Part shown: one piece after another, positions 420 through 30,488 of the stretch
How the letters are laid out: the number at the start of each line of letters is the position of its first letter
Position numbering within the stretch: position 1 is the stretch's first letter
Origin: an uncultured archaeon
GTDB taxonomy: Archaea; Asgardarchaeota; Lokiarchaeia; Sigyniarchaeales; SOKP01
Assembly (NCBI GenBank): GCA_964447495.1
Contig: CAYUTF010000006.1
Span: forward strand, 1,156 to 65,155
Reading direction: 5' to 3'
DNA length: 64,000 nucleotides
Program-made: the position numbers and the translations under genes
Notes under the pieces: model-generated
Told to the model about the DNA's origin: nothing
Seen by the model: only the letters and a program-made list of their open reading frames with translations
The model's database searches: none

Positions 420-1373
420 ATGGAAAAAAATTATGATATATCTTTACAGGAAATTCTAAAAAAGCTGAATAATTGTTCTAAATTTAATTTTACTGAGATT
501 GCTCGAGATTTGGGTATAACAAGATTAACCCTTAATAATAGAATTAAGAATTTAAGAAAACAAAAAATAATTTCCAATTACACAATTGATGTTAATCCAA
601 ATATTCGCCCAAATTTAAAATATGTCTTTATGGAAGTAAAAACTAATCCAAAGGAACCATTTTTGGTAAAAGAATTGTTAAAAATACCCCAATTAAAAAT
701 GTTAGATGGAATTTTTGGTGAATTTTCCTTAATTGCTATGTTTATTTTTAAAGATTTAGATGATTTTAACAATACTCTTATTAAAATCGATAATATCATG
801 GCAAATTCCTATTTTAAGAAATATCAATTTATTGAAACAATTAGAATTTATAAAATCAGCAGCTTTCGTTTAAATGAAGCAAAACCAATTTTAGAGGATT
901 TAGATAAGAAGGATTTTTTGCTTTTAAAAATATTACAAGACAATCAAAGGTTAAAATTACTTTCAACTTATGAAATAAAAGAGTTCCTTAACAAAGAACA
1001 TAATCTCATGACGTCACAGTCAACAATTCACAAAAGAATAAAAGATATGGAAGAAAAAGGGATTATTTTAAATTATTCAGTAACATTTAATCCAAAACAA
1101 ATTGGTTATAAGGGAAAGTTTTATGTACGAATTAAACCAAAAAATCCAGGAAAATACGATGCTATCGCTGAAAATTTAGAAAAAAGTGCCAATATCACCG
1201 ATTTATTCCGGATTGGTGAGCAATATGGCTTGTTAGCCATAGTTAGAGTGAAAAAAATTGATGAATATAGTATTTTTATAAAAAATATCTATGAAACAGA
1301 GGAAATTGAAGATACATTTACCAATTTTGCGCTTGATGAATTAAAACCATTTACACATTTTAACATCTTTTAA
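420..1373 (+). CDS. Lrp/AsnC-type transcriptional regulator with two tandem HTH plus RAM-like units
   Basis: Two repeats have a wHTH-like N-terminus (NFTEIARDLGITRLTLNNRIKNLRKQKII; STYEIKEFLNKEHNLMTSQSTIHKRIKDMEEKGII), each followed by an alpha/beta module. The start is moved to ATG 420 because residues 1-48 of the track ORF are low-complexity AT-rich read-through. Confidence 0.6.
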   Translation: MEKNYDISLQEILKKLNNCSKFNFTEIARDLGITRLTLNNRIKNLRKQKIISNYTIDVNPNIRPNLKYVFMEVKTNPKEPFLVKELLKIPQLKMLDGIFGEFSLIAMFIFKDLDDFNNTLIKIDNIMANSYFKKYQFIETIRIYKISSFRLNEAKPILEDLDKKDFLLLKILQDNQRLKLLSTYEIKEFLNKEHNLMTSQSTIHKRIKDMEEKGIILNYSVTFNPKQIGYKGKFYVRIKPKNPGKYDAIAENLEKSANITDLFRIGEQYGLLAIVRVKKIDEYSIFIKNIYETEEIEDTFTNFALDELKPFTHFNIF

Positions 1374-1430
1374 TATATTCCTATTCTATTGAATTACATT
1401 AATTTATTTATTATCGAATAATTTCTTCAT

Positions 1431-3518
1431 TTGAAGAAAATGAACTTGTTTTTTGATCTCAAAAGTAAAAAAGTGGGATATTCTAGAATAGGTAAAGTAT
1501 ATCTATCTTCCAAAGTTAGAAAATATTTCAGTACACCCAATATAGTAATTCCTATGACAAATACTTTGATAGGTAATATCAATTTCTTAGAATATTTTGA
1601 AAATCATGAGATCTTTTTAATAACAAAAGAAATTTTCTTAAAAATTGGATTTCTACAAGATAAATTTAGAAATACTAGTTTTATGTATTCACATAACGGT
1701 ACATTAGAACGGTATGAAGAAATTCTTCACATAAATGAGCAAATTTTTTCACAAGATAATATATGTTCTATTATACCATTTAATATACCAACATCTTCGA
1801 TAGATAAGGATTTTGCTGAAAAAGAAATTAAGAATTATATTCAAAATATAAATCAGATTTTAGAGAGATACCCCAATAATAATTTTGGGATTACTATCAA
1901 AATTTTTGATTATTCTGAATTAATAAGGTTATATTTTCCTCTTATAACTAAGTATAAAAATATTAGAATCTTAAATTTTGCAGATTTATTTGATACGTTT
2001 AAAAATTATAGGGCTATTCTTAAAGTCATTAATGAAGTTAAGCAAGAACTAAATAATAACTTGGTTTTAATGGCTTCTGGACGCATCATTCCTAAATTCT
2101 ATCCCTTCTTAATATATTTGGGAATAGATTTAATAGATAGTTCATATATGATGTATATTTCTGCAGAAAATTATTATGATGCTATTGAAGACTTATTACC
2201 AATATATAAACTTAAAGAATTACCATGTCCGTGTGTTGCTTGTTCAGGAAGATTGAATGAGCTCTTACAAGAAAAATATTCTCAACAAAAGATAATGCTC
2301 CTTGTTTTACATAATCTAATTTCAGCCAAAAATTATATGAATAAAATAAAGCAGTATTTAAACACTGAAGATTATCGAGCATTTTTGGAAAAGACAACTC
2401 ATGATGATCCATTATTGTATTCCAGTTTAAAGACATTGGACAAAGAATATTTTAAGACACTTAGATTAGAGACTCCATTATCAATGGAAAGCACATTAAT
2501 TAAATGTATAGGTCCAATTTCATATAATAGACCAGATTTTAAGGAGTTTAGGAAGAGAATTACGACTACTTTCACACCAGAACCATGGACAAAATTGATA
2601 ATAATTTTACCCTGTTCAGCTAAAAAACCTTATTCAGAATCTAAATCTCACAAATTATTCTATAAAGTAATTAGGAAATTTCCGGAGTTTCCTGATTTTC
2701 AAGAGATTATTTTAACCTCACCATTGGGGGCAATTCCAAGACAATTAGAGAACATATATCCTGTTAACTCTTATGATATTCCAGTAACAGGAGAATGGGA
2801 TTATGAGGAGGTACAGATTTCTGCGAAGATGTTAATAAAATTATTAAAGAAATACAATGAAAAAATTCCAATAATCTGTCATTTAAAAGACGGTGGTTAT
2901 TCTTCGATTATAGATGTTGCAGTTAAAGAATTAAAGCATCAATTTTATTTTAGTAAAACAGATAATGATCTCACTTCAAGTTATTCTTTAAAATCTTTAG
3001 AGGAAACATTGATTACCGTAAAGGATCAATTTATACCTGAGGGAGATTCAATAACTAATACTTCATTAACAAATACTTGGTTAAGAAAATTAATTAAAAT
3101 TGCAGACTATCAATATGGTGTAGATTCAGGTATAAAACTATTTACTGAAGGAATTACAACTCGAAAAAATCGAACTGGCACAAAATTTGAAATTTTTAAA
3201 GCAAATAGTAACGATTTTATGGGAATTTTTGACTTTAGAAAAGGGCAGATTGAATTAAGTTTAAATGGTGCAAATTTATTATTTCCTTTTGATGATAACG
3301 GAAATACTATCATCTTTGATGGAGACACTATAACAGGAAGTAATCTTTTCAGACCTGGAATAATTGATTACAGCTCTAATATTAAACCAAATAGTAATGT
3401 TTTCATATTAGATAAAAGTAAGCAGCATATAATTGCTATTGGTAATTCGGTTATTGGTTCAAATGATATTAGAAATACAAAAAAGGGATTAGTTGCTGAG
3501 ATTTATGAAAAACTATAA
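1431..3518 (+). CDS. arcS: archaeosine synthase ArcS (TGT-like N-domain, PC-X3-KPY-X2-S-X2-H motif domain, C-terminal PUA)
   Basis: The exact motif PCSAKKPYSESKSH is present. A TGT-type Zn motif CPCVAC is present. The C-terminal end is PUA-like (GNSVIGSNDIRNTKKGLVAEI). Confidence 0.75.
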   Translation: MKKMNLFFDLKSKKVGYSRIGKVYLSSKVRKYFSTPNIVIPMTNTLIGNINFLEYFENHEIFLITKEIFLKIGFLQDKFRNTSFMYSHNGTLERYEEILHINEQIFSQDNICSIIPFNIPTSSIDKDFAEKEIKNYIQNINQILERYPNNNFGITIKIFDYSELIRLYFPLITKYKNIRILNFADLFDTFKNYRAILKVINEVKQELNNNLVLMASGRIIPKFYPFLIYLGIDLIDSSYMMYISAENYYDAIEDLLPIYKLKELPCPCVACSGRLNELLQEKYSQQKIMLLVLHNLISAKNYMNKIKQYLNTEDYRAFLEKTTHDDPLLYSSLKTLDKEYFKTLRLETPLSMESTLIKCIGPISYNRPDFKEFRKRITTTFTPEPWTKLIIILPCSAKKPYSESKSHKLFYKVIRKFPEFPDFQEIILTSPLGAIPRQLENIYPVNSYDIPVTGEWDYEEVQISAKMLIKLLKKYNEKIPIICHLKDGGYSSIIDVAVKELKHQFYFSKTDNDLTSSYSLKSLEETLITVKDQFIPEGDSITNTSLTNTWLRKLIKIADYQYGVDSGIKLFTEGITTRKNRTGTKFEIFKANSNDFMGIFDFRKGQIELSLNGANLLFPFDDNGNTIIFDGDTITGSNLFRPGIIDYSSNIKPNSNVFILDKSKQHIIAIGNSVIGSNDIRNTKKGLVAEIYEKL

Positions 3519-4596
3519 CGAGAATATTTCATTAACCTCTAGGATTACACAAATTAGACAGAAAATCATTAATAAGAAGAAAAAAGTTTCAAACCTAAGA
3601 CTTGATATGCCAGTTAGTTATTGGATTAAAGAAGATCGGTTATTAAGTAAGAGAGGCAAAGAATTCATGATAATTCTTCGAACTAAAGGATGCAGTTGGG
3701 CTTTGGGAGATTCTGGTGGATGCTCAATGTGTGGATATATTGGAGATTCTAATATTAATTATGTTGAATCGAACAATATCATTAATCAATTTGATTATGC
3801 TATGGATAAAAAACGGGATGAAATTGCCGCAGCTGAGGAAGATTTTGTTCTTAAAATATTTAATTCGGGCAGCTTTTTTGATGATGAAGAGATCACAGAA
3901 GAAGTGAGAACTCATATCTATGAAGAAATTGAAATGAACAACAGGATTAAGGAGGTTGTAGTCGAATCTCGTGTTGAATATTTAGAAGAAGATAAGTTAA
4001 AAGCTATGCGAAATACATTAAAAGATAAATATATAGAGATTGCTATCGGTCTTGAAACTGTAGATGATTATTTTAGGAATAATTATATTAATAAAGGATT
4101 ATTATTTGATGATTTTTTAAAAGCTGTTGAATTATGTAAAAAGTTAAACCTCGGTATAAGAGTATATCTTCTTTTTAAACCACCATTTCTTAATGAACAA
4201 GCAGCTATTGACGATTGCATTAATTCTGTGAATAAATTAATTGATCTCAAAGTTGACACGATCTCTATTAATCCCATTAATATTCAAAAAGGTTCATATT
4301 TAGAATATTTATGGTACCAGAATCGATATCGACCCCCCTGGTTTTATTCCCTAATAAAAGCTTTAAAGAAAATATTTATAAATAAAAAAGATGAAATACC
4401 TGTACGGATTATATCTGATCCTTCTGGAGCAGGAACAAAAAGGGGAATTCATAATTGTTTAAAAAGAGAATGCAATGAAAATATGCTATCTCTACTAAGA
4501 AGTTTTGTTCTTACTCAAAAGATTGAGGAATTAGTTAAAGAAGTTCCGGAGTGTGAATGTTATCTACAATATAAACTAAAGAAATTTTATTTGTAA
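3505..4596 (+). CDS. radical SAM protein, RaSEA-like partner of ArcS
   Basis: It has the Cys cluster GCSWALGDSGGCSMCGY (C-x9-C-x2-C) and TIM-barrel-like radical SAM core motifs. It overlaps the arcS stop by 14 nt (ATG 3505). ArcS-RaSEA gene pairing is established for archaeosine formation. Confidence 0.65.
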   Translation: MKNYNENISLTSRITQIRQKIINKKKKVSNLRLDMPVSYWIKEDRLLSKRGKEFMIILRTKGCSWALGDSGGCSMCGYIGDSNINYVESNNIINQFDYAMDKKRDEIAAAEEDFVLKIFNSGSFFDDEEITEEVRTHIYEEIEMNNRIKEVVVESRVEYLEEDKLKAMRNTLKDKYIEIAIGLETVDDYFRNNYINKGLLFDDFLKAVELCKKLNLGIRVYLLFKPPFLNEQAAIDDCINSVNKLIDLKVDTISINPINIQKGSYLEYLWYQNRYRPPWFYSLIKALKKIFINKKDEIPVRIISDPSGAGTKRGIHNCLKRECNENMLSLLRSFVLTQKIEELVKEVPECECYLQYKLKKFYL

Positions 4597-4864
4597 CTCC
4601 TTAATGGGAATATATTTTTATTCATAATCTCTATTTAAAGAGATGAATCAAAATGAGTAGGGAAATGATTGAAAAAAGAGATTCTATATACTTTTAATAG
4701 CAATCTAAGTAATAGATTATAAAAATCGTCATAGCATTGGCAATTTTTGTCAATTCTCGATAATTGCGCATTCAAAAATGTAAAAAACCCATTTAAAAAA
4801 GTTATATTTAAATATAAGCCTTCAATTCTCTATTTTATATTTTAATAATTAGATAGGGTAAACC

Positions 4865-5113
4865 TTGAAAAATTGGGTCAAATTAAATCTATTCTATCTG
4901 GGGGACTCTAAAAAGAGTCGTATTTTTAGAGCAAAAAGATGGAATAAAAGCCTTGAAAAAATAACACATAAACATATTTTTACAGAAAAGTATGAAGAAA
5001 TCGGAGTTATAAAAGAAATTTTTGGTCCGATTAATTTACCATTCATTTCAGTCAAAACTCATCATGAAATCCAAATTAATCCCAATGAAAATTTTTATGT
5101 TAAAATGCAGTAA
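4865..5113 (+). CDS. gar1: H/ACA ribonucleoprotein complex subunit Gar1
   Basis: It carries the motif IGVIKEIFGPINLPFISVK typical of archaeal Gar1, and is about 80 aa long. It lies immediately upstream of tfb, as in many archaea. The start is TTG. Confidence 0.6.
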   Translation: MKNWVKLNLFYLGDSKKSRIFRAKRWNKSLEKITHKHIFTEKYEEIGVIKEIFGPINLPFISVKTHHEIQINPNENFYVKMQ

Positions 5114-5160
5114 AAAGTATTAAAATTCCCCGATAACCATTCTAAAAAAAGGTGTAAATT

Positions 5161-6123
5161 ATTTCGAGTTGGAACCAAATTAAAACAATCCCATTTGAAA
5201 GAATAAAGATTGTAAATAACCTTTGTTCTGAATGTGGAAAAAATATTTTGTTTGATGAAAATAGAGGGTTATTGGTTTGTGAAGAGTGCGGATTAGTTCA
5301 TTCAGAGAAATTTATTGATCATGGTCCTGAATGGAGAGCTTTTGATGCTGATCAAAAGAAAAAAAGAACTAGAACTGGAGCCCCTATGACTTATATGATA
5401 CATGATAAGGGCTTATCAACCATGATTGATTGGAAGAATAGAGATATTTTTGGAAAGGAAATTCCCGCAAAATTAAGAGGCCAAATTTATCGACTCCGTA
5501 AATGGCAGAGTCGAATTAGAGTGTCTGATGCGACTGAGCGAAATCTTACTTTTGCTTTAAGTGAATTGGATAGAATGGCTTCTAATTTAGATCTTCATAA
5601 GAACATTCGGGAGTGTTCTGCAAAGATATATAGAGATGCTGTTGAGGCTCATCTTATTCGTGGAAGGAGTATTGAAGGAGTAGCTGCTGCTAGTTTATAT
5701 GCAGCATGTCGTATGTACAAAATTCCACGAACACTCAATGAAATTGCTGATGTAGCAAGGGTAGACAAAAAAGAGATTGGAAGATCGTTTCGATTTATTT
5801 CGAATGAATTATTGCTTAACTTAAATCCTACTAAACCTTTGGATTTTCTTACACGATTTATTTCAGAATTGGAATTATCTCCTTATTGTCAGAAAACGGC
5901 TAAAAAGGTAATAAAAATGGCTGAAGTAAGAGGTTTAACCTCTGGAAGAGGTCCTACAGGAGTATGCGCTGCCGCAATTTATGCGGCCTCAATATTAACT
6001 AAAGAAAGAAGGACTCAAAGAAAAATCGCTAAAATTAGTCAGGTTACAGAAGTGACAGTAAGAAATAGATTTTCTGAATTAATAGATAATTTAGATTTAG
6101 GGATAAAGATTAAAAAGAAATAA
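5161..6123 (+). CDS. tfb: transcription initiation factor IIB (TFB)
   Basis: It has two cyclin-fold repeats and a B-finger/linker region (GPEWRAFD...). The Zn ribbon CSEC-x14-CEEC begins at 5224, upstream of the track's TTG start at 5248. The frame is open from 5158, and the only start candidates are ATT 5158 or 5161 after GGTG at 5151-5154. The call is secure but the start coordinate is uncertain. Confidence 0.85.
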
Positions 6124-6127
6124 TTCC

Positions 6128-6141
6128 TTTTTGCCTTTTTT
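6128..6141 (+). terminator. oligo-T tract downstream of tfb
   Basis: T5 (6128-6132) and T6 (6136-6141) lie directly after the stop codon. Archaeal termination typically uses oligo-T tracts. Confidence 0.4.
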
Positions 6142-6292
6142 CATTAATTTTTACATAACTATTTCACTGTGAAGGATTAAATTTTTGATATTGTTGTGTT
6201 TAAGAGACGTATTATCTTCATATCACACCATTTAATGACTTAAATTTTTCACATTTATTTTATAAATTGCATATTTTGATAGGTCAAATGTT

Positions 6293-6643
6293 ATGAAGTC
6301 AGAAAGTCCGAGATTGATTAATCAAACGGAAGTTAACTACTTTCTCCACCGAGTTAAGAAAAATTTTCCTAATTTTGTGGCAGTTGTTATCACAGATCGA
6401 AATGGATTTCCAATAGGTTCACATATCTCAAAAAGACTATGGGTTCATGAAAACACTTTGGCTTTGTGGGCAATTTCAAAAAATAAAGAATTGGTTATAA
6501 GAGATCCAAATTTAGTCCAATTGAAATTTAATATAGATAAAGAAAAAAGATACAAGCTTTTCATTTTATTGGAGAAATCTAAAAATTACAAAAGTAAATT
6601 AAAATTATTAAAAGAGATAATCAAGGGTCAAGAGCTATTCTAA
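6293..6643 (+). CDS. Roadblock/LC7 (MglB-like) domain protein
   Basis: Its size (116 aa) and pattern fit the Robl/LC7 fold (NFVAVVITDRNGFPIGSHIS...LALWAIS). Confidence 0.5.
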   Translation: MKSESPRLINQTEVNYFLHRVKKNFPNFVAVVITDRNGFPIGSHISKRLWVHENTLALWAISKNKELVIRDPNLVQLKFNIDKEKRYKLFILLEKSKNYKSKLKLLKEIIKGQELF

Positions 6644-6808
6644 TTAAGACTCTCTAACCTCGTTCTTTTAATTTAATAAGATCAATCGCTATTTCATCTA
6701 TAAATTCTCTTAAATAAATTTTTATAGAAAAAACGTTATTTTTATACTATATTAGGTTATTCTAGAAGAATATTGTAAATTTATTGAATTTGTTCTTATA
6801 TAATCAGG

Positions 6809-7288
6809 TTGATAACGTTGAGTTATTCTGAAGATGAGATGAAACTGAAAAAAATTCTAAAGGAGATTATTAATAGTACTGCTGGACTGAAAAACGTTAT
6901 TATTATAGATGATACAGGGATAACTATAATGAGCGAGTCTAAATTTAATTTCCCAAGTGAAGATGATATTTCAGTAGAAAAAATAGGAGCAATTGGAGGA
7001 GCTGTTTTCATAGCTGGACAGGAACAAGGTCATATCTTGGGTTATGGAGATATAAGTCTGCAGATCACGGAATATAATAAAGGCTTTCTTTTTTCACTAA
7101 AAATTGGAAAAGGAGTTCTTTGTATTGCTACAGATAACAACGTACAAGTTGGATATATACGCGCCTTAATGAAAAAATGGGCACCTTTAATAGCAAAAAT
7201 TTTGAACAACTATCTGCAAACTGACCAAGGAGAGATAAATAAAGAATTAAAAGATTTATTTAGTTCAGATACAATTGGAATGTTATAA
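6809..7288 (+). CDS. Roadblock/LC7 (MglB-like) domain protein
   Basis: LKNVIIIDDTGITIMSES...GAIGGAVFIAGQEQG...ITEYNKGFLFSLKIG is typical of Robl/LC7. The start could instead be ATG at MKLKK. Confidence 0.55.
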   Translation: MITLSYSEDEMKLKKILKEIINSTAGLKNVIIIDDTGITIMSESKFNFPSEDDISVEKIGAIGGAVFIAGQEQGHILGYGDISLQITEYNKGFLFSLKIGKGVLCIATDNNVQVGYIRALMKKWAPLIAKILNNYLQTDQGEINKELKDLFSSDTIGML

Positions 7289-7943
7289 TAAATTATTGCT
7301 TAAAATCAGCATATATTGTAGCCTAAAACACTAACCCTTTTTGCTCATTTTTAGGTATATACCATTTAAATCAAAAAAGTTCTCTCGTGTTAGGCAGTAA
7401 TTTCTATGCCTTTATGGGAACATAATCATGTCTTCCACCTGGGTACTGACTCAGGCCTCATTGCTTTGGTATCTACCTTTGCTAGGTCAAGAGCCCATTT
7501 TTTTGGAAAGGTATTGATTATTAAATTCAGGATGTAAGCATTACTTTGCACAATTAATCATGAATTTTCATAATTGTCCTCGAAAATGCTCATAGTATTC
7601 CATCATCATTTTCCCAAGATAGTAATATATGATCTAATTAAAAATTTTTAGTATTATTCTGAGATGAGGAGGAACTTTTTAAGATTTTAGGTCACCAAGT
7701 TAGAAAAAAAATTATCTCTAAATATAAAAAAAGATTTGTATATATACATTATAACCGTTCTTTGTTGGATTAGTATTCAATCCCTAGTTCCGATATATCT
7801 TAAATTTTAAGAACCTGACTGTAGAATTCCAAGTATATTTATTTTAATTTAAATAACACTTAATATTGTTGCAGTTATCAACTATGTTTTTATATGGAAA
7901 CTGAAAGAATAAGAGAATTAACCAAAATCTTAGAGTTGATATT

Positions 7944-8543
7944 ATGAGAATTGTATTTTTCATAAAATCTGGTACAGTTAAAATCGATAAATATAATATC
8001 AAGGATATTCCTGGATCTTCTGGTAGATTAGATGTAATCTCAAGATCAATTTTGTCTGCAGTGCTCAAGGATAATGAATTAGATAAAAATGTGGAGATCT
8101 GGGTATTTTTAGATAATTATGGGACATTCATTTTTGATTCAAATAGATTTGATGATGATATGTTCCCTAAAAATGAGATTTTGCTCTCAGATTATTTTGT
8201 GGATTTTATTTTAAAGAAAAATAAACCCATACTGTTGAGTGAAAATCCATTAAACATAATAAAATTTGCAGAATTAGATATCTTTGAAGCCTTAAAGAAT
8301 TTCATTAAAAAGGAATTTCAAATTTTTGTATTAAATGAAAGTGGTCATGATTTTTTTCAATATTTTTGCACTTTAAATGATCAGAGTAATCTGTTATTTA
8401 TTATTGGAGATCAGTCTGGTGAACTTGTCAACTCACAAAAATTATTAGATTTAAATCTTATGAATATCAGTCTAGGAACTCAATCCTACTTAGCATCTTC
8501 GGTTATTCGGTTAATAAAACTAAATTTAAGGTTAATAATATGA
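7944..8543 (+). CDS. trmY: tRNA (pseudouridine54-N1)-methyltransferase TrmY-like (SPOUT)
   Basis: The N-terminal motif IKDIPGSSGRLDVISRSI resembles the TrmY DLPG-x-GRLD signature, and the length is about 200 aa. Confidence 0.6.
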   Translation: MRIVFFIKSGTVKIDKYNIKDIPGSSGRLDVISRSILSAVLKDNELDKNVEIWVFLDNYGTFIFDSNRFDDDMFPKNEILLSDYFVDFILKKNKPILLSENPLNIIKFAELDIFEALKNFIKKEFQIFVLNESGHDFFQYFCTLNDQSNLLFIIGDQSGELVNSQKLLDLNLMNISLGTQSYLASSVIRLIKLNLRLII

Positions 8544-8589
8544 AAAGTTTTTTATTCCTAAACATTTTACCTTTATAATATCACTATTA

Positions 8590-9291
8590 TTGAAATCTGC
8601 AATAAAGTTGAGCGAAGAAGATTTTTTAAATGATAAAAGAAAGAATCAAAGGAAAGTTTTACTAAGATTTATTGATGCTCCAGTAAAATATTTAATCAAA
8701 CATAATGTTTCGCCCAATACTTTATCATATCTTGGCTTTATATGTTCATTAAGCGTAGCTTTTTTTGTTGCTATCGACGGATTGCATTTTTCTATTTGGT
8801 TTGGGTGGATAGTACCCTTCTTATTATTTTGGGCTGGAGCTTTTGATGTATTTGATGGGGAAGTGGCTCGAAGAACGCATCAAAAATCTAGAGCAGGAGC
8901 ATTTTTAGATTCAAATTTAGATAGACTATCTGATGCCGCAATAATAATTGGTATGATAATAGGTAATTATATAAATTATTATGTTGGATATCTGCTTCTA
9001 TTTTTATTTTTAATGATATCATATATCCGTGCTAAAGCAGAAAATGAAAATCTTGAAATGAGAGGCGTTGGTTTTATGGAAAGAGCTGATCGTTTGATAA
9101 TCCTATGGTTTGCGTTCATTGGGGAATTTTGGGTATATTTTTTATCAAATTTATTTTTAGGATTCACTGTAAATATCTTCTTTCCTATTTTTATCATTAT
9201 CTATATCATCTTACTCTTATTGACAATAGTTCAAAGAATAACTTTTTCTATGAAAGCTCTCAGAAAAATAGATGACCATGAAAATAATTAG
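8590..9291 (+). CDS. CDP-alcohol phosphatidyltransferase family protein (archaeal lipid head-group synthase)
   Basis: The complete motif D-x2-DG-x2-AR-x8-G-x3-D-x3-D is present (DVFDGEVARRTHQKSRAGAFLDSNLD), and the protein is multi-TM. Confidence 0.8.
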   Translation: MKSAIKLSEEDFLNDKRKNQRKVLLRFIDAPVKYLIKHNVSPNTLSYLGFICSLSVAFFVAIDGLHFSIWFGWIVPFLLFWAGAFDVFDGEVARRTHQKSRAGAFLDSNLDRLSDAAIIIGMIIGNYINYYVGYLLLFLFLMISYIRAKAENENLEMRGVGFMERADRLIILWFAFIGEFWVYFLSNLFLGFTVNIFFPIFIIIYIILLLLTIVQRITFSMKALRKIDDHENN

Positions 9292-9432
9292 GATGAAATA
9301 CTAAATAAAGTTGAAACCTACTTCACACTTTTAGTTAAATTGTGAAGAAGAATAAATTTTTTAAGTTGTGTAGTATTTAAGAATTGTGATTTAAAGGATA
9401 AATTAAAAAAATTTAAGTAAAAGCTGATTTTT

Positions 9433-9705
9433 ATTCCAAAGAAAAGAAGAAGTGGTGGAAAAAGCGGTTCTAGCAAGGGACATTATGCCCGAGTGCAATG
9501 TAGTAATTGCGGGAGGTTTGTTGCTAGAAGCAAGGCAAAAGCAGTTACTAGGAGAGTCTCTTTAGTGGATGGACGTATGTATACAGAATTAAAGAAAACT
9601 GGAACGATTATCCAAGCCCCAACTAAGACACAATATTTTTGTATCAGTTGTGCGGTCCATGGACACCAAATTAGTCAACGAGATAAAAATTTAAGAAAAA
9701 CTTAA
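9433..9705 (+). CDS. rps26e: 30S ribosomal protein eS26
   Basis: CSNCGRFV...YFCISCAVHG matches eS26. The conserved N-terminus (M)PKKRRSGGKSGSSKGH is encoded in frame upstream of the track's GTG at 9493. The only start candidate right before PKKRR is ATT 9433, with a stop at 9418-9420. Confidence 0.8.
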   Translation: MPKKRRSGGKSGSSKGHYARVQCSNCGRFVARSKAKAVTRRVSLVDGRMYTELKKTGTIIQAPTKTQYFCISCAVHGHQISQRDKNLRKT

Positions 9706-9839
9706 TTGTATTTTGTATTTTTTAAGAAAATTAGTCAGTATATTTCTAATTTCAGTTAGTTTCTTTTTTGTCATAAATGAACACTATATGGCAATAACCT
9801 TTCCCAAAAATTAAATTTGTTATTGCTTTATTTAAATAA

Positions 9840-11834
9840 TTATAGATTAAGTGCTTTGAAAAAAGCGGGTAAAGAATAGATAATTTCACACTCATTCTTT
9901 TTAGTTATTTCAATAATCGCACGAATTAAATAGCTATCTTTCAATTCATCACTTGGTTTATAAATTTTTGCTGTTGCTGTTGGCTTTAACTTAAGAGTAT
10001 AATTTTCCGCTATTCCGGTAATATTTTCTTCTGTATTTAGGATAAGCCCTAATAATCCTAATTCATAATGGGACACAATAAAAAGAATTTGATCTTGATC
10101 ACCATATTTTTCAAAATGAACCACTTCCAATTCATCTTCCTGAAGTTCTTTAGGAAATCTAGAGAAGGGGATAATCTTTCTTTTTCCTGATATGTAAGGA
10201 AAATCAGTGTAAAAAAGTAAATTAAAACTTGATATCTTCTTGATTTGTTCATTATATTTTTCTACGTCTTTAACGGAATAAGCTTTGTCAAGCAATACAT
10301 CCAATTTATCAATCATAATATCTTCTGCAGAATATCCATTTAGTACTGTTGCTATATACGCTCTTTTTAATTTTTCAATTAATGTATCGCTCCTCACATT
10401 CAGATTATAATCAATACTTAATTCGAGAGCCTCATTATACAGATTTACAGCTATTTGTGAATGCCCTAATGCTAAAAAGTAATCACCTAGTTCACTAAAG
10501 ACGATGATTGCATCTAGAAAATCTTTTTCAAAATCTATTTTTGAAATTTCTTCCATGATCGTTATCGCTGTTTCAGTTTCCTCACCTTGGATATATAATG
10601 AAATTGCTTTACCAATTAAGCATTTTAATTTTAATTTTTCATCATTGTAAATATCTGATAATTCTTCCGTAAAATTATAAGCCATAATCGCATCATCATA
10701 GAGTCCGTGAAATAGTAATATTAACGCTTTTACATAGTTAAGAGTTAAACAAGTTTGTTGATTACGAATTATTGTAGAAAATAATGCAGCCCTCTCAATG
10801 GAATCAATTGCAGAATTGATTCTACCTAAAGAAACCAAAATAAATGCCCGGAGGAACTCCATTTTACTTATTTCTGAACAGATTAATTTCTCTACTATTT
10901 CATAACTCTTTTGATTAGTAAGTTGCCCAGCAGCTAATTGGAGAAGAGAAATCAAAAATCCATTTCCTTTTTTTAAAAACTTTGCTGCTTCCTTAGAATC
11001 ATTTTTTATAATCGAATCCCGTGCTCTTTTTAAATATTCACGAGAAATTTTTAAATTTTCAAGAAAGTTAACAATATCTTGGATTTTCTCCTCTTCTTTT
11101 GATGAAAGCTTGTGATCTTCAATATATTTTTCAGCAATCGCAATTTCTTTTTCATACTTTTTCATTCCAATCTGAAATTTAACTTTAGTAGCTTTTTTAT
11201 CAACATATTCAGCATCTTGGGTTAGAATTGAGCTTTCTGTAACACTTATAGCTTTTTCAAGCAACCATGTAATTTTTGACTCTGCAGGATAAACTTTTGA
11301 TCTTTGAAGCATATACGAGAGTGTATAATTTAAGCTTTTCTTCCACAAATTATTGAAATAATTTCTTAATTGTTTATTAGGTATTGTTCTTTGGATTTTT
11401 AAAAGGAAACTTGATAATGATAAGGTTTCAACTTTACCATGGAATATTAGATTTGTATTTTTGATGAGTTTGAAATCATCAGATACCAAATAAATTAGAG
11501 TTTTATTTTCTTCATCCATTAGACGGTCCGCAAGGACAATTAATGACAAGTCAGGATCTTGTGCTGGAAATCGAATATTATGCATCATTAGTTCTGTTTT
11601 GATATTGTCAATTTCAGAATCAAGAATTTTTTCGATATTCATGATTTTTGCTAATCTTTCTTTATAAGTAAGGGGTGCTTTTATCTCATTAAAAACCGTT
11701 TCAGATATATAGTACTCAAAACCAAGCTGTTCTGATACTTCTTGTAAATTATCTAAAATGTGGCGTACTCTGATAGATAATAACATAATGAAGAAGTTTG
11801 CATCAAAAATGATCAATTCTTTTTTTTTAGGCAT
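9840..11834 (-). CDS. PIN-domain nuclease fused to a long TPR-like helical-repeat region
   Basis: The N-terminus has PIN acidic residues in the canonical order (IIFDANFF, ISETV, DPDLSLI, VSDDF). The C-terminal ~450 aa show repeated A/Y/L helical-pair patterns. Confidence 0.55.
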   Translation of the reverse strand: MPKKKELIIFDANFFIMLLSIRVRHILDNLQEVSEQLGFEYYISETVFNEIKAPLTYKERLAKIMNIEKILDSEIDNIKTELMMHNIRFPAQDPDLSLIVLADRLMDEENKTLIYLVSDDFKLIKNTNLIFHGKVETLSLSSFLLKIQRTIPNKQLRNYFNNLWKKSLNYTLSYMLQRSKVYPAESKITWLLEKAISVTESSILTQDAEYVDKKATKVKFQIGMKKYEKEIAIAEKYIEDHKLSSKEEEKIQDIVNFLENLKISREYLKRARDSIIKNDSKEAAKFLKKGNGFLISLLQLAAGQLTNQKSYEIVEKLICSEISKMEFLRAFILVSLGRINSAIDSIERAALFSTIIRNQQTCLTLNYVKALILLFHGLYDDAIMAYNFTEELSDIYNDEKLKLKCLIGKAISLYIQGEETETAITIMEEISKIDFEKDFLDAIIVFSELGDYFLALGHSQIAVNLYNEALELSIDYNLNVRSDTLIEKLKRAYIATVLNGYSAEDIMIDKLDVLLDKAYSVKDVEKYNEQIKKISSFNLLFYTDFPYISGKRKIIPFSRFPKELQEDELEVVHFEKYGDQDQILFIVSHYELGLLGLILNTEENITGIAENYTLKLKPTATAKIYKPSDELKDSYLIRAIIEITKKNECEIIYSLPAFFKALNL

Positions 11835-12028
11835 TTTTATCTCTCATTAGGATTGATAATAGGTCCACCAATGGATAGGATTTAATTGCTAATATTATAG
11901 TTTTATTGTTTTTATTGTTTTGTTAATGATAAAAAATCATAAGCGATTAATTTAGGTTTTTTAAAGAGTACTATCTTATCTTAATTTATTATCATATTTT
12001 TGAAAAAGAATGAAATAATTGATATTTT

Positions 12029-12532
12029 ATGAAAATTATAAGTCTAATTGGATATTCTGGTTCAGGGAAAACACATTTCATTGTCAAGGCAATAGAGATG
12101 TTAAAATCTGAATTTAATCTTAATATTATAGTAATTAAGAATGTACACACCCACAAACTAGATATTGAGGGTAAAGATTCATATGAATTTTCAAAAGCAG
12201 GAGCAGATTTTTCAATAATTAAAAATAAATATAATAAATTAGCCGTTTTTTTCAAAAAGGAATTAGAAGTTAACGATATTATTGATTGGATTTTAAAACT
12301 CTCTAATGATATTGATTTAGCTTTTATAGAAGGATTTAGAGAGGAAAAATATCCTGGAATATTATGTGCAAAGAATATTGAGGATGTTATTCCTCAATTG
12401 AACCCAAATATTAAAATGATATCTGGTTTAATCTCTGTTGATAATAATACTATAAAATCTGAAGAAGGGGTTCCAATTATTAATATAGAAAAGAATTTTC
12501 ACACATTTTTAGAAATATTTAATATTAAATAA
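12029..12532 (+). CDS. mobB: molybdopterin-guanine dinucleotide biosynthesis adapter MobB-like P-loop protein
   Basis: MKIISLIGYSGSGKTHF...VIKNVHTHKLDIEGKDSYEFSKAGA matches the MobB pattern. Confidence 0.65.
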   Translation: MKIISLIGYSGSGKTHFIVKAIEMLKSEFNLNIIVIKNVHTHKLDIEGKDSYEFSKAGADFSIIKNKYNKLAVFFKKELEVNDIIDWILKLSNDIDLAFIEGFREEKYPGILCAKNIEDVIPQLNPNIKMISGLISVDNNTIKSEEGVPIINIEKNFHTFLEIFNIK

Positions 12533-12547
12533 ATATGAAAATAGTAT

Positions 12548-14470
12548 TTAGTTATCCTTTATCCAATATTGAGCTAATTGCTGACAAGCTAATTGTAATT
12601 CATTTTTGAATTTAAAATTTGAATTTTCTTTCAAAAAAGATTGAGTTAATACTTGAAGAGCCTCGTCTTTATTCGAATGATCTTTTATAGAATTTTGTAT
12701 ATTATTAATGAAATTGGTCAGTGGAATTATTATTTCATTGATTAACCAATCTTCAAAGAGTTGCTGATCACTATAGGATTGAAAATTATATGTAATAACG
12801 AATCTTACGATATCTTGAAAACTATAAAAATACTTATCAGGAATATTAATATTATGAGGCTCCAATTCCTTTTTTAATGAATCCTTATTAAGACTTATAA
12901 GATAATCGGGCCATACGTCATCAGAAACGTTTAAATCTTGGAATATAAATAATTCTAATACTCTCAATGCAATATTTTTCCCAACATACCTACTTCGGGG
13001 ATCTAAAAAATTAACTGATGCTTGTTCTGGCATTTTCCTAATAAAGATTTTGTCAATCAAGGTGTAAAGCATCCGGCATATGTGGTCAATAATTATATTA
13101 AAAGTAATAATTCCATTCTTCGGATTTTCTGACAAAATTTCATTTTCTTTTTCTATAAGTGTTGAGATATTAAAATTTAAGCTTCTTAGAAATGTTTTAA
13201 AGAAATCATAATTAACATGAGACAATTCTAAATTAAATATTTTCTGAAAAATTAGATTCACCACATCTCCATTTGAAATTAGAGAAAAATAATCCATAAA
13301 GCTTTCAATAGATTTGATTGAGTTTGCGCTAATGACTATATTAGATACCTTATTATGTTCATTTAATATCTTTTTGAATCTTTCGGGTAATAATAATAAA
13401 TCTCCTACTTCTAATGCTTCGAGACTACCGCTCCCAAAGTAATATTTCATATATAATAAAAATAAATTAAACTGTGATTTGGTTGAGGGTAAATTGTTTG
13501 CTTGAAAAGTTGAATATAAAGTTGATTTCTTATCCAAAATATCAAAAATTCTCAGTAATGAATTTTTTTTTTCTTCAGAATAATTAAAATTAACAAGAAA
13601 TTCTTTTTTAATTACATCTAACTTTGAATAGATAGAATCCTCGACTCTTGCGCACACGAAATTAAGAAAATCAAGTAAGGGAGAAAAATTTTGCAAAAGA
13701 TTACATTTTTTATAGAAATAATATAATAAATCGACAAGCTTTTCCTTTGCAAAAGGATATTGTTCTAAAGCTAACTGATACAATTTTTTTCGACCCATTA
13801 GTAACTTCTCTAAATAAACCTCTGGGACATCTTTAAAATATTTAAGGAAGTAAAAAAGGAACATATAATAATAATTTTGAAACGTTTCATCTTTACTATT
13901 TTTAATAACAATAAAAAAACTAATAGTTTTTCCCTCTTCACCATTTCTAATTACAGCTCCATCAAGAATAATATAAAACTTTTCTTGAAGTAACTTTCTA
14001 ATTACAACACCTAAAATTGATACAATAAGATAGAAATATCCAAAAGGAGATGCTACTCCATTTAGTTTATCGTTCTGACTCTCTGAAATTTCTCTAAAAA
14101 TTGAAATTTCTTCATTAGATAAATGATAATCGTATTCAAAAAATAAAGTTTCATCTGAGATTTTTTCCCGATTTACTAATTCTAACTGTTCTTGTTTAAA
14201 TCCACAGAAGCGGTGTAAATAAAGCTTAAAATATTCATGAAAAGTTTGATAGAAAAACGTAGTATAAGTTTTTTTTATCAATCGTTTTTGATTTTTGTAT
14301 TGGAATTCTTCCCATTCTGATATAATAATACTTTTAAATTTGCTAAAATCAATGTTATTTTCATTTAAAATTTCGAAAAAAATGTTTGAATTAAAATTAA
14401 GTGTCAAACCTTGAGTACTAGCCTTGTTCCCAATTAATTCCAAGATATCTTTCAAATTTTTTTTGACCAC
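12548..14470 (-). CDS. hypothetical protein (640 aa, no recognisable motif)
   Basis: It is a long uninterrupted ORF with a GTG start after AGGA. It looks helical, and I recognise no domain. Confidence 0.5.
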   Translation of the reverse strand: MVKKNLKDILELIGNKASTQGLTLNFNSNIFFEILNENNIDFSKFKSIIISEWEEFQYKNQKRLIKKTYTTFFYQTFHEYFKLYLHRFCGFKQEQLELVNREKISDETLFFEYDYHLSNEEISIFREISESQNDKLNGVASPFGYFYLIVSILGVVIRKLLQEKFYIILDGAVIRNGEEGKTISFFIVIKNSKDETFQNYYYMFLFYFLKYFKDVPEVYLEKLLMGRKKLYQLALEQYPFAKEKLVDLLYYFYKKCNLLQNFSPLLDFLNFVCARVEDSIYSKLDVIKKEFLVNFNYSEEKKNSLLRIFDILDKKSTLYSTFQANNLPSTKSQFNLFLLYMKYYFGSGSLEALEVGDLLLLPERFKKILNEHNKVSNIVISANSIKSIESFMDYFSLISNGDVVNLIFQKIFNLELSHVNYDFFKTFLRSLNFNISTLIEKENEILSENPKNGIITFNIIIDHICRMLYTLIDKIFIRKMPEQASVNFLDPRSRYVGKNIALRVLELFIFQDLNVSDDVWPDYLISLNKDSLKKELEPHNINIPDKYFYSFQDIVRFVITYNFQSYSDQQLFEDWLINEIIIPLTNFINNIQNSIKDHSNKDEALQVLTQSFLKENSNFKFKNELQLACQQLAQYWIKDN

Positions 14471-25253: not shown

Positions 25254-26546
25254 TTATATACTTTTCCTTAGCTGTGATATTTCTAATCTTTGTTGAACAT
25301 TCTGTTTTTTTAAATCTTCAATTATACTTTTAAGTTCTTCTATTCTCAGAGCAATATTATGGTCTTCAACTTGATCTAAACCAGAATGAGTTTGATTTTT
25401 AATATTAAATGAGTTCAATTCATTTCTTAGGTCATATATTTTTTGATCTTTTTCTTTCATTTGATTTTCTAAGATTTCATAACTCTTTTTTATACGAATT
25501 GCTTCATTTTTTATTGTGCTAATCTCTTCTTCTTTAATATTTAGATTTCTTTTTGCTTCATCTAATTGTTGCTGTAAAAAACTGGCCATTTCGCGTTGAA
25601 TTTTTAGCTTTCCATCAATTTCTCCGGGAGAACTTGCTTGAAGTGGAGTAGTTTGAATTTGAGGTGTTTTTGATTGACTTTCTAAAAGTTGAATCCTCAC
25701 TTTTGCTTTATTGAGTTTATTCTGTAATTCTTCCACAACTTGATCTAATGGTAGTGGTTCATTTGACTCTTTAAGAGATGAGACTAATTCTTTTAATTCC
25801 TTGATTTGCACATTTTTTGATTCTAATTCGCTTGTTAAAGACATTAACGCCTTATCATTTGCTCCTTTTGAACTTTTTTTCTCATATTTTTCTAATTTCT
25901 TTTTTAAATTTTCATTTTGTTTTTTGACTTTGGTCAAAGTATCTTGAAGATCTTCTAATAAATCCTTAGTAATGTTCTCTGATTTTTTTTGATCCTTTGT
26001 AATAGCAGATTGTTCTAAAAAATTTTTTAATTTTAAGATTTCTTCTTTAAGATTTTCAATTTCCCTATCTTTCTCATCGACAATCTCAAGATCATCATGT
26101 TCTTCTCCTTTTCCTGTTCTTCTTAACTTTTTGATAAGAGAATCTTGTTTATTGATTTTATCTTGTAATTCTTTAACTAATATATTAAGTGGCTGCTTAT
26201 TCCTCAGATCCTCAACTCTAATAACGGAAGATGAGGTACTTTCTGAACTTTTGATTGATTCAAGTTCCTTTTGAGCATCTATCTTCTCCTTTCTTAAAAA
26301 TCCCATTCGATCTTTTAAATCTCTAATTTCTCTTTCTTTGGCTTCTAATTCGATACTTAATTTTGATTGCTTTGTCTTTTTAGATTGCTTCTTTGATTTT
26401 TTATCAGGGATTAATTCTCCCAATTTCATAATTTCATCTTCTAAATATTCGATCTTATCTAAATATTCACCGATCTCTCCTTCCTTTTTATTTAATTCTA
26501 ACTGTAGCCTTTCAAGTTGTTTTTTAAGATTAGCTTCTTCCGTCAT
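25254..26546 (-). CDS. long coiled-coil protein (K/E/L-rich, 430 aa)
   Basis: It has an almost continuous heptad-like charged sequence and no enzymatic motif. Confidence 0.55.
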   Translation of the reverse strand: MTEEANLKKQLERLQLELNKKEGEIGEYLDKIEYLEDEIMKLGELIPDKKSKKQSKKTKQSKLSIELEAKEREIRDLKDRMGFLRKEKIDAQKELESIKSSESTSSSVIRVEDLRNKQPLNILVKELQDKINKQDSLIKKLRRTGKGEEHDDLEIVDEKDREIENLKEEILKLKNFLEQSAITKDQKKSENITKDLLEDLQDTLTKVKKQNENLKKKLEKYEKKSSKGANDKALMSLTSELESKNVQIKELKELVSSLKESNEPLPLDQVVEELQNKLNKAKVRIQLLESQSKTPQIQTTPLQASSPGEIDGKLKIQREMASFLQQQLDEAKRNLNIKEEEISTIKNEAIRIKKSYEILENQMKEKDQKIYDLRNELNSFNIKNQTHSGLDQVEDHNIALRIEELKSIIEDLKKQNVQQRLEISQLRKSI

Positions 26547-26633: not shown

Positions 26634-28547
26634 CTAATACATTTCGAAATCCTTTATTGAAAATTGCTTGACTTTTTTCATTACAGGAAAAAGACTAAGA
26701 GCATTAAATATTCCGAATATGATAAATAAAAAGCCTATAAAGATAAAAGGTATAAAGATATGGGGCAAATATACTCTTTCAAATATTATAATTGAATTTA
26801 ATATCATACCTACTCCCAAACTTACACCAAGAGAAGGTATTATAACATACATAGCCTCTAAGAACAAAATCTTTCTTATTGATTTATTCTTAGAACCAAT
26901 CGCTCTCATAATCAGGAAATCTTTTACTTTTTCCATTATTCCACCTTTTTGATAGTTATAGAGAGATAATATCGCAACTACACTCAAAATTATTATTAAA
27001 ATCGATGGAAACAGAGCTAGATTTGAAATGAAATTAAGATTTTCAGTAAATATATGATCCATTTTTAGATATGTAAATTGCTCTCCTAAAGAAGCATTAA
27101 TAATGCTTTCAAGCTGACCTTGAATGCTATCAAATCCCTCTGAATTTACTTTAATAAATGCTAGATTTACTTGGTTTGAAGTTAAATTCATATTAGTACG
27201 GAATTTATCTATATCAATATAAGTTGCATAGCCGCTGTAGAGACTATCAATAACAACACCAGATATTTCAAATATTTCACCTAATTGATCAAAAAGAATA
27301 GCCTGATCAAAAGGATAGTCAAAAAAGTTATAGGCTAAACCATCTCCAATGACCGCATAGTAACTCGATACCCCTTGTAGTGTGATAAAATCACCCTCGA
27401 TTTCAAAATTTTGGAGATTATCACTTTGATTAACACCAATAACTGGAAAAATCCCTTTTCTATTCTGACCTACATATAAATATCCTCCATCTTCATAAAT
27501 GTGAGTTCCAGATATTTCTTCCGCTTCTAAAAAGTTAATAAGTCGATACTCTTGATCTTCAATCTCTGAAAGGGTATTTAAATCATCTAAGGATGAGATA
27601 TTAAATAAGTAATCCTCTTGTAAGAAGTTAATACTAGTATTATCTATAAATATAGCTGGATTCTGAAACATCTCATACATTAAAGAATAATTTTGAACCA
27701 CATCCTTATGTCCAATTAATATAAGGTTATCTGTTTGTGATTTCCTAACCCATTCATATGAAGAGGTGTATAATACTATAGTTCCTAAACCTAAAGTAAA
27801 AATGATTAATGATATAATAGAGAAAACTATAATATATCTCTTAAACTCTCCTTTCCTCCTTATAGAATTAATTACAGACATTTTAAAATTTAGGTTTATT
27901 AATGATAACCATTTAGGGATGAATGTCAGGTCTTTAGATGCATTATAGTTATAAGGTATATCCTTAGAGAAATTCTTCACAATTTTTTGATTCCCTATTT
28001 TACGTAATATGTATCCAGGTACAATAAAAATACCCCCTAAGCATGAGAAAAACAAAATGGGAGTATATACAAAATCTAATTGGAATTGCATATAAATATT
28101 GGTAAACGAAAAACTAAATGCAAATATAGCAAATGAAATTATTCCAATAACTATACCGATTATAAATGCAATTAAAAAGATGAGATATACTTCAGTTAAA
28201 TAAAAACTATATAATTTACGTGGTAATGAACCTAGCGCCCTCATTATCGCGATGTCACGCTTCTTGGAGATAATTAAGGTACTACTTATCACAATAACAA
28301 CAATAAACGCCAAAATCATCATTAATATGATAATTAAGCTATTAAAATCAGTAAAAATTATATTAATTCCGCCTGAAAAATAAAATTCGTTTACATAACT
28401 ATATTGGATAAAGTTGTTTAAACCAATAGAGGAAGTAAAATAAATTAAGAACTCAGTAACTGAAATTATTAATACTAATACCACTAAATAAGGATAGGAT
28501 ATGTCTTTTTTTCGATAGATATCTTTAAACGCAAAATCAAGTGAAAT
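26634..28547 (-). CDS. ABC transporter permease, FtsX/MacB type
   Basis: There are two FtsX-like TM bundles separated by a large extracytoplasmic domain. The track start is GTG 28484, but the frame is open upstream and encodes a typical N-terminus (SLDFAFKDIYRKKDISYPYL). ATT 28547 lies 7 nt after GGTGA. Confidence 0.75.
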   Translation of the reverse strand: MSLDFAFKDIYRKKDISYPYLVVLVLIISVTEFLIYFTSSIGLNNFIQYSYVNEFYFSGGINIIFTDFNSLIIILMMILAFIVVIVISSTLIISKKRDIAIMRALGSLPRKLYSFYLTEVYLIFLIAFIIGIVIGIISFAIFAFSFSFTNIYMQFQLDFVYTPILFFSCLGGIFIVPGYILRKIGNQKIVKNFSKDIPYNYNASKDLTFIPKWLSLINLNFKMSVINSIRRKGEFKRYIIVFSIISLIIFTLGLGTIVLYTSSYEWVRKSQTDNLILIGHKDVVQNYSLMYEMFQNPAIFIDNTSINFLQEDYLFNISSLDDLNTLSEIEDQEYRLINFLEAEEISGTHIYEDGGYLYVGQNRKGIFPVIGVNQSDNLQNFEIEGDFITLQGVSSYYAVIGDGLAYNFFDYPFDQAILFDQLGEIFEISGVVIDSLYSGYATYIDIDKFRTNMNLTSNQVNLAFIKVNSEGFDSIQGQLESIINASLGEQFTYLKMDHIFTENLNFISNLALFPSILIIILSVVAILSLYNYQKGGIMEKVKDFLIMRAIGSKNKSIRKILFLEAMYVIIPSLGVSLGVGMILNSIIIFERVYLPHIFIPFIFIGFLFIIFGIFNALSLFPVMKKVKQFSIKDFEMY

Positions 28548-28560
28548 TTCTCAATCACCA

Positions 28561-29349
28561 TTAAATTTTTATAATATTCTTTTCTGGCAGATAATCTTCA
28601 TTAATTATATGACCATCTTCAAAAGTGATTACCCTATTCGCAAGTTCGATTAAAAACTCGTCATGGCTAGCTATTATTATCGTTTTTTCATTTTCTTTCA
28701 TATCCTTAAAGATATCCCTAATAAAAATGCTAGTATCTTTATCTAAATTAGCAGTAGGCTCATCTGCTAAAATGAAGGGAGGCTCATTTGCTAATGCTCG
28801 AGCTATTGCTACTCTTTGTTGTTCACCCGCAGATAATTGGAAAGGTAGATGCTCTCTTCTATTTCCAAGTCCAACCTTTTTCAAAAGCTTAACAGCTTTT
28901 TCTCTCTGTTCTTTTAGGCTTAGCCCTGTTAAACTCATGGGAAACATGACATTTTCTTCTGCAGTTAATGTGCTAATCAAATTATAATTTTGAAAGATAA
29001 AACCCGAATTTATCAATCTAAATGTAGCTAAACTCTCTTCTCCCATATCTGTAATTCTTATTCCATTTGAGATAATAATTCCTGAATTTGGATTGTCTAA
29101 ACCACCAAGAAGATTTAATAAAGTAGTTTTTCCTGCTCCAGAGGGACCTTTTATCACAATGAAATCATTTTTCATAATTTCTAAGGATACATTATCTACT
29201 GCTCTGACTATATACTCACCAATTTCATAATCCTTGGTAAGCTTTTTTGCTATTAATATCATATTTGTGTCAAAAACGATATCTGATAATTCAGAGTCTT
29301 CTAAATTAGGTTGATCTTCTAAAATTTTCTTCGACATTTTATATTCCAT
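28561..29349 (-). CDS. ABC transporter ATP-binding protein (MacB/LolD-like)
   Basis: Walker A GPSGAGKTT, signature LSAGEQQR and Walker B ILADEP are present. Confidence 0.9.
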   Translation of the reverse strand: MEYKMSKKILEDQPNLEDSELSDIVFDTNMILIAKKLTKDYEIGEYIVRAVDNVSLEIMKNDFIVIKGPSGAGKTTLLNLLGGLDNPNSGIIISNGIRITDMGEESLATFRLINSGFIFQNYNLISTLTAEENVMFPMSLTGLSLKEQREKAVKLLKKVGLGNRREHLPFQLSAGEQQRVAIARALANEPPFILADEPTANLDKDTSIFIRDIFKDMKENEKTIIIASHDEFLIELANRVITFEDGHIINEDYLPEKNIIKI

Positions 29350-29852: not shown

Positions 29853-30488
29853 GTGGATTTTGAAAAATTAACAGAACTTATTATAGAATTAGAAGTAGAT
29901 GATATCGCGGATGCCGTTAAAGAAGCGTTAGAAGCAGATGGAAAAGATCCATTTGACATTTTAAATGCTTTAACGAAAGGGATGGATGAAGTTGGTAAAC
30001 GTTATGAAGAGAAGGAATACTACCTTACAGAGCTTGTTTTGGCCGGTGAAACCATGAAAGAAGCATTTAAGGTATTACAGCCAGCCTTAGCTGCTGTGGA
30101 TAAATCGCAAGACAAGACTAAAATTATTTTAGCGACAGTAAAGGGGGATAATCATGATATTGGCAAAAATATTCTCGCATCCTTGCTTTTGAGCTCAGGA
30201 TTTGAACTTATTGACCTTGGAATGGATGTTGGCGAAGACATAATTGTACAAAAGGTCAAAGAAACGGGAGCAACCATTATAGCTTTAAGCTCCTTACTTA
30301 CGATGACAGTGGAACAGATAAAGGTTGTGGATGAGGCATTAAGAGCGGCAGGTATTAGAGATAAAGTTAGTTTAATTGTTGGAGGCGCACCATTAAATAT
30401 GGAACTTGCAAAAAAACTAGGCGCTGATGACTTCGCTGAAGATGCCGTCGATGGTGTTAAGCATATTAAGAAATTAGCAGGAAAATAG
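29853..30488 (+). CDS. cobalamin-binding corrinoid protein (MtaC/MtbC/MttC-like)
   Basis: It has a B12-binding cap helix bundle plus a Rossmann domain with the DxHxxG motif (GDNHDIGKN) and SxL (SSLLT). Confidence 0.8.
   Translation: MDFEKLTELIIELEVDDIADAVKEALEADGKDPFDILNALTKGMDEVGKRYEEKEYYLTELVLAGETMKEAFKVLQPALAAVDKSQDKTKIILATVKGDNHDIGKNILASLLLSSGFELIDLGMDVGEDIIVQKVKETGATIIALSSLLTMTVEQIKVVDEALRAAGIRDKVSLIVGGAPLNMELAKKLGADDFAEDAVDGVKHIKKLAGK

Follow-up and report, generated by a model that had tools for sequence, protein, structure and literature searches.

Introduction

The bacterial gene infC, which encodes IF3, and Escherichia coli pcnB use AUU start codons, and in eukaryotes initiation at near-cognate codons (ACG, AUU, AUA, CUG, and others) is controlled by eIF1. 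The archaeal initiation machinery consists of aIF1, aIF1A, and aIF2 (PMC7531240), and ribosome profiling in the archaeon Haloferax volcanii placed about 30% of the putative alternative initiation sites at near-cognate codons (PMC7261190). Here, we analyze the start of a permease gene on a 64,000-nucleotide (nt) stretch of DNA from an uncultured archaeon of the Lokiarchaeia (contig CAYUTF010000006.1 of assembly GCA_964447495.1; the whole stretch is hereafter called the window). Comparison with related genomes indicates that this permease, which forms a two-gene ATP-binding cassette (ABC) transporter operon with its ATPase, very probably starts at an ATT codon (28547-28545, minus strand) instead of at the previously called GTG (28484). 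The permease further appears to be one case of a genus-wide, Shine–Dalgarno (SD)-dependent use of near-cognate start codons (ATT, ATA, ACG, and rarely ATC) in this genus of the Promethearchaeota (Loki-type Asgard archaea).

Similar to infC and pcnB, the permease displays a conserved AUU behind an SD sequence as the only start of a normal gene, and this codon would be read by the initiator tRNA with a third-position mismatch. The likeness to infC extends to a fidelity factor, since the gene of aIF1, the functional analog of IF3, also lacks a canonical start (ATG, GTG, or TTG) here. However, infC and pcnB are isolated bacterial genes policed by IF3, whereas in the present case the machinery is archaeal, the codon varies from species to species (ATG, ATT, or ATA), and dozens of genes appear to be affected. 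As in eukaryotic near-cognate initiation, the codons are single-base variants of AUG (ATT, ATA, ACG, and ATC), and aIF1 and eIF1 are homologous; unlike in eukaryotes, SD pairing would take the place of scanning, and the near-cognate codon would be the only start of housekeeping genes and not an alternative upstream start. H. volcanii provides an archaeal example of initiation signals at near-cognate codons, but those alternative sites were put aside by the authors (PMC7261190), while the sites described here are conserved primary starts proposed from comparative evidence. The transporter itself resembles the type VII permeases (MacB, LolC/E/F, and FtsX) in its FtsX domains, in the ABC ATPase gene beside it, and in an N-terminus that is short and basic ahead of the first transmembrane (TM) segment, TM1. 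It differs from them in that a single chain with about eight TM segments unites two FtsX modules, and in that the first module lacks a large extracytoplasmic domain.

Results

Layout of the permease start region

On the minus strand, the 262-residue ABC transporter ATPase gene (28561..29349; Pfam ABC_tran, E=1.2e-30) ends with a TAA at 28563-28561. The permease frame is shut by an in-frame TGA (28551..28553) two codons ahead of the ATT and reads, in the 5′ to 3′ direction, TGA, GAA, ATT (28545..28547), the 20 codons of SLDFAFKDIYRKKDISYPYL (28485..28544), and GTG (28482..28484). The SD sequence GGTGAT (28554..28559) is located 6 nt before the ATT, or 7 nt if counted from GGTGA. An earlier note on this DNA had described the ATPase TAA, GGTGA, the in-frame TGA, ATT, and GTG, and all five were found on the minus strand, at its coordinates where it gave any; it had placed GGTGA 3 nt past the stop, and this distance had to be corrected, as the motif starts 2 nt after the last stop base with a single base in between. 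An in-frame codon check also bore out that no ATG, GTG, or TTG occurs from the TGA up to GTG 28484, which is the first such codon (+21) within the 638-codon open frame. At 31% G+C, 22 codons would stay open by chance with a probability of about 0.17, and the case for the ATT therefore rests on comparison with other genomes. The re-called permease coding sequence would span 26634..28547 (minus strand) and comprise 637 codons and the stop, covering two FtsX modules and about eight TM segments.

Conservation of the start column among orthologues

A search of 40 relatives for permease orthologues returned matches whose alignment, for most genomes of the genus, opens with query residue 1 or 2, and the same-genus orthologues align with the query from residues 1-2 through 637. 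In agreement with the ATT start proposed by the earlier note, homologs were found to begin at the ATT column; homologs beginning at the position equivalent to 28484, which that note had named as the contrary outcome, were not seen in the alignment. At this column, defined as the codon preceding S-[LIF]-D-F-A, the 27 close orthologues carry ATT (15), ATA (5), or ATG (7) and never GTG; the 10 same-order homologs from other families carry ATG (9) or GTG (1), with neither ATT nor ATA. These alignments show that the ATT sits in a column that is ATG in relatives.

In a maximum-likelihood tree of 32 permeases, ATG is basal, and at least five start-state changes are needed to account for the observed codons. 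The window's clade, comprising its own locus (L001) and two relatives with 75% (L044) and 73% (L045) identity, is entirely ATT; the non-ATG state is common to whole clades, and one ATA orthologue (L016) is nested within an ATG clade. An in-frame stop lies two codons upstream of the start column in both the window and L016, and in L026 and L046 an in-frame TAA directly adjoins the ATT, leaving no alternative start upstream. The first downstream canonical codon is scattered from +1 to +81 codons among the orthologues and is therefore not a conserved start. None of the 20 ATT/ATA species shows an internal stop, and each has kept the 637-codon frame intact over its full length.

The disputed codons themselves were compared across the 27 close orthologues (residues 2-21; 20 codons). 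Nonsynonymous (pN) and synonymous (pS) divergence amounted to 0.19 and 0.75, respectively, corresponding to a pN/pS ratio of 0.25, with a mean amino-acid identity of 70%. The remaining two frames hit stops in 24/27 and 26/27 loci, Ser2 is preserved across TCN-to-AGY changes, and the most conserved motif within the extension is S-[LIF]-D-F-A-x-K-D. Taken together, these comparisons show that the 20 codons upstream of the GTG are protein-coding and under purifying selection, and GTG 28484 is most likely an internal Val codon within TM1. Residues 1-21 hold four lysine or arginine residues and the loop following TM1 holds none, a distribution in line with the basic stretch before TM1 described in the earlier note and consistent with an N-in first helix. 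A possible internal repeat between the N-terminus and the lead-in of the second FtsX module was also considered and proved not significant, with 338/2000 shuffles scoring as high.

The ribosome-binding site

The metagenome-assembled genome (MAG) that contains the window (G000; 3.8 Mb, 98% complete, 31.3% G+C, with the window on contig C6) has no assembled 16S rRNA gene, and two 16S genes from the same genus were used instead. Their 3′ end reads GGAUCACCUCCU, to which GGTGAT (28559-28554) is a perfect 6-mer complement. An SD core is located about 8 nt upstream of the start column in 20/20 ATT/ATA orthologues vs. 4/7 ATG orthologues (Fisher p=0.012, with rows that are not phylogenetically independent). 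Among the first ATGs of G000, 234/2463 (about 9.5%) are preceded by a 5-mer SD at aligned spacings of 4-7 nt, the peak of a distribution that extends from 1 to 10 nt. The permease ATT, at a spacing of 7, falls within the range preferred by these ATG starts, and no SD is present ahead of GTG 28484.

Near-cognate start codons across the genome

An SD test with GGTGA alone, as initially applied to G000, was biased, given that the motif contains a TGA, which closes one frame, and it was replaced by a comparison of 61 non-canonical triplets with spacing controls. Triplets were taken if they lay, in an open frame of 100 or more codons, ahead of its first canonical start, with an in-frame stop upstream and at least 10 codons to the next canonical start. 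When ranked by the presence of an SD at spacing 4-7, ATT came first (33/1121, p=1.3e-5), ATA second (24/830, p=2.8e-4), and ACG third (5/88, p=6e-3) of the 61. ATT and ATA combined were enriched over five control triplets composed only of A and T (odds ratio [OR] 3.4, p=1.4e-9), and the enrichment was gone at off-target spacings (OR 1.07 and 1.13). The excess of about 36 sites, set against 326 SD-led canonical first starts, corresponds to a rough 10% of SD-led starts.

In G000, 40 candidate ATT/ATA/ACG sites were listed, including textbook N-termini, and in ten tested candidates the Pfam match, which opens at model position 1-3, sets in ahead of the next canonical codon. The candidates identified by Pfam include two Ras-type GTPases with their P-loops (C95:6029 and C208:39), a universal stress protein (USP; C39:25778), ApbA with its Rossmann fold, an ABC ATPase with its Walker A motif (C67:8983), the large subunit of a NiFe hydrogenase, whose next canonical start is at +93 (C32:19706), the N-terminal domain of NAPRTase (C1:6036), the HhH domain of RadA, and the zinc ribbon of TFB.

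The TFB gene (window 5161-6120, plus strand) provides a second instance of an apparent ATT start on the window. Its zinc ribbon (Zn_Ribbon_TF) covers residues 22-61, the next canonical start is at +29, and no canonical start is found ahead of the ribbon. Across 24 same-genus orthologues, the TFB start column reads ATT in 20, ATA in 3, and ATC in 1, lies 6 nt past GGTG, and usually has a stop one codon upstream; in other families of the order it is ATG. The RadA column (C171:2-709 of G000, minus strand, and loci L139-L162) is divided within the genus among ATT (4), ATA (4), ACG (4), and ATG (5), with ATG in the outgroups, and every non-ATG form lies behind GGAGTTGAT. Extra RadA copies were observed in G007 and G005. 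For the main aIF1 (SUI1) orthologue, all 15/15 genus loci lack a canonical codon from the in-frame stop to the zinc-knuckle cysteines and share a conserved ATT, located at C27:4922 in G000. There, the open frame of 113 codons (C27:4913-5251, listed also to 5254; plus strand) contains a sole canonical codon, number 109. A second aIF1 paralogue is present in G000 at C23:10957-11169.

Initiation machinery and proposed mechanism

The genus has a canonical initiator tRNA: it carries an A1:U72 pair, its anticodon is CAU, and the anticodon stem contains three G:C pairs. In G000, the gene (C27:28820-28673, minus strand) was missed by ARAGORN, with and without introns, and by a pattern search, and was found by BLAST with a genus copy. 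Its exons are identical to that copy and are interrupted by two introns, one just past the anticodon loop and the other in the T arm; the G002 and G003 copies are intron-less. Two possible causes of near-cognate start use, a loss of aIF1 and an altered anticodon arm of the initiator tRNA, were considered and rejected, as G000 has two copies of aIF1 and the tRNA is canonical; the data therefore speak against a change in the tRNA and against loss of the fidelity factor. With regard to other tRNA genes, G000 carries on C80 (about 1-13100) a dense array of approximately 20 of them, including tRNA-Ile(UAU) and elongator tRNA-Met, some of which are very A+T-rich. This array may represent a true cluster of tRNA genes, or an element of mobile or viral nature.

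In the mechanism that we propose, GGTGAT would pair with the 3′ tail of the 16S rRNA and so place the small ribosomal subunit, and the Met-initiator tRNA (CAU) would read the AUU with its mismatch at the third position. Translation would then yield a product of 637 residues, the first 21 of which form a basic cytoplasmic lead-in and the beginning of TM1. The data fit a model in which SD-anchored placement lets a normal initiator accept single-mismatch codons. Initiation would thus occur on the AUU itself, with Met as the inserted residue and with an output presumably below that of AUG, and the weak codon may lower permease output relative to the ATPase. By analogy, the weak start of aIF1 itself could set a permissive stringency, an idea that draws on the infC and eIF1 precedents and on the known role of aIF1 in start-codon fidelity (PMC7531240).

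Alternative explanations

The former annotation, which takes GTG 28484 for the true start and the 21 codons ahead of it for an untranslated leader that is open by chance, has some apparent merit: the GTG is the first canonical codon, the 22-codon opening is not a rare chance event at the window's G+C content (about 0.17), and about half of the orthologues carry an ATG or GTG near codon +20/+21. Nevertheless, we consider it very improbable, as the supposed leader is conserved as protein, the ATG-bearing orthologues have their start in the ATT column, the nearest canonical codon downstream shifts from one orthologue to another, the GTG has no SD ahead of it, and a start there would drop all four N-terminal lysine and arginine residues together with the beginning of TM1. 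Initiation at another near-cognate codon inside the extension is likewise highly unlikely. ATC 28520 and ATA 28502 are both in frame, and the genus appears tolerant of ATA and ATC starts, but neither codon has a properly spaced SD, neither column is conserved as ATN or ATG among the orthologues, and either start would delete the S-[LIF]-D-F-A-x-K-D motif. It is also conceivable that the gene lost its ATG and is decaying without a functional start, given that ATG is ancestral and that drift from G to A or T is expected at 31% G+C. The probability of such decay appears negligible: the frame is intact in all 20 ATT/ATA species, purifying selection persists, whole clades carry the non-ATG state, and the essential genes TFB, RadA, and aIF1 are found in the same state.

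Several observations weigh against the ATT start and its genus-wide extension. All the genomes compared are MAGs, and the genome-wide statistic covers SD-led sites only, with its 10% being a rough figure. In L015 and L045, the only orthologues with a canonical codon upstream of the start column, that codon is located two codons ahead of the ATT and abuts the SD. Moreover, an out-of-frame ATG (28561-28559) overlaps the ATPase stop (TAATG) in a classic coupling arrangement. The earlier note gave the coordinates of the start region correctly and overlooked this ATG, which is not conserved and leaves the data unexplained. It opens a mini-ORF (open reading frame) of 25 codons (28484..28561, minus strand) in a frame different from that of the permease, ending with a TAG (28486-28484) that overlaps GTG 28484. 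If translated by coupling, this mini-ORF, which is not conserved, would cross the ATT start; it is probably incidental. A start at ATG 28561 coupled to the ATPase stop would reach the permease frame either via a -1 shift or if the AAATTT run contained a 1-nt assembly error, where one added T would yield M-V-I-E-K-F-S-L-D-F. Homopolymer errors do occur in MAGs, and a frameshift or indel has to be judged by comparison with other genomes and not from this sequence alone. That comparison leaves the coupled start with very little credibility: the close relative L044 lacks the ATG, in L045 it lies uncoupled about 30 nt beyond the ATPase stop, and most orthologues lack any out-of-frame start. The frame relation recurs across independent MAGs, the sequence G-AAA-TTT does not fit the canonical slippery pattern X-XXY-YYZ, and the ATGs of the orthologues fall exactly in the ATT column and not 4-5 codons upstream. 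We therefore retain ATT 28547-28545 as the proposed start of the permease.

The transporter and its neighborhood

The permease matches PF02687 (FtsX; E=3.1e-23) in two stretches, and the gene immediately upstream encodes the ABC_tran protein, a synteny kept in the genus orthologues. The loop of module 1 comprises only about 25 residues; module 2 includes approximately 240 non-hydrophobic residues between the hydrophobic stretches 234-263 and 503-534. A Pfam search gave no MacB_PCD match in the permease, and comparison with the solved structures of MacB (5nik) and LolF (9w2w) matched only the FtsX cores, with E about 1e-3, leaving the N-terminus uncovered. The designation 'MacB-type' used in the earlier note is apt only when taken broadly, as two FtsX domains beside an ABC ATPase; no MacB_PCD match was obtained, and the similarity to MacB and LolF is weak.

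Directly downstream of the permease (window 25254-26546, minus strand) lies a gene for a 430-residue charged, repetitive, coiled-coil-like protein, which has a normal ATG start and keeps its position in the genus loci. On the plus strand, divergent from the transporter operon, a 211-residue ORF (window 29853-30488) contains the sequence GDNHDIGKN, which we take to resemble the DxHxxG motif of cobalamin-binding (corrinoid) proteins.

Discussion

On its own, the permease is an ordinary member of a rare class, and it is of value as a clean example, replicated across the phylogeny, of the use of near-cognate starts throughout a lineage. Within one genus, at least five switches among ATG, ATT, and ATA have taken place at its start column, which makes the permease a natural experiment, and the fact that all non-ATG forms retain an SD points to the way in which SD strength may make up for a weak codon. 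On a broader level, SD-guided initiation at AUU, AUA, ACG, and some AUC codons could be a systematic, heritable property of the genus that involves about a tenth of its SD-led genes, including TFB, RadA, and aIF1; through its weak start, aIF1 could feed back on start-codon stringency and keep it low, in the manner of IF3/infC and eIF1. We regard this wider proposal as evenly poised between being right and wrong. The combination of a canonical initiator tRNA with a non-canonically started aIF1 makes the stringency of start selection testable in archaea that share the eukaryotic initiation-factor core.

The finding also bears on annotation. Gene callers limited to ATG, GTG, and TTG would cut short or overlook a considerable number of Asgard proteins; the losses would comprise 21 residues in this permease and, elsewhere, P-loops, zinc ribbons, and Rossmann motifs. 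Such errors pass into protein databases, domain censuses, and structure predictions for a lineage that is used in reconstructing the origins of eukaryotes. Our literature search turned up no account of Asgard archaea with ATT/ATA starts, though one may exist elsewhere. If the proposed genus-wide use of near-cognate starts is true, the closest archaeal relatives of eukaryotes would run a eukaryote-like near-cognate initiation on bacterial-type, SD-led mRNAs.

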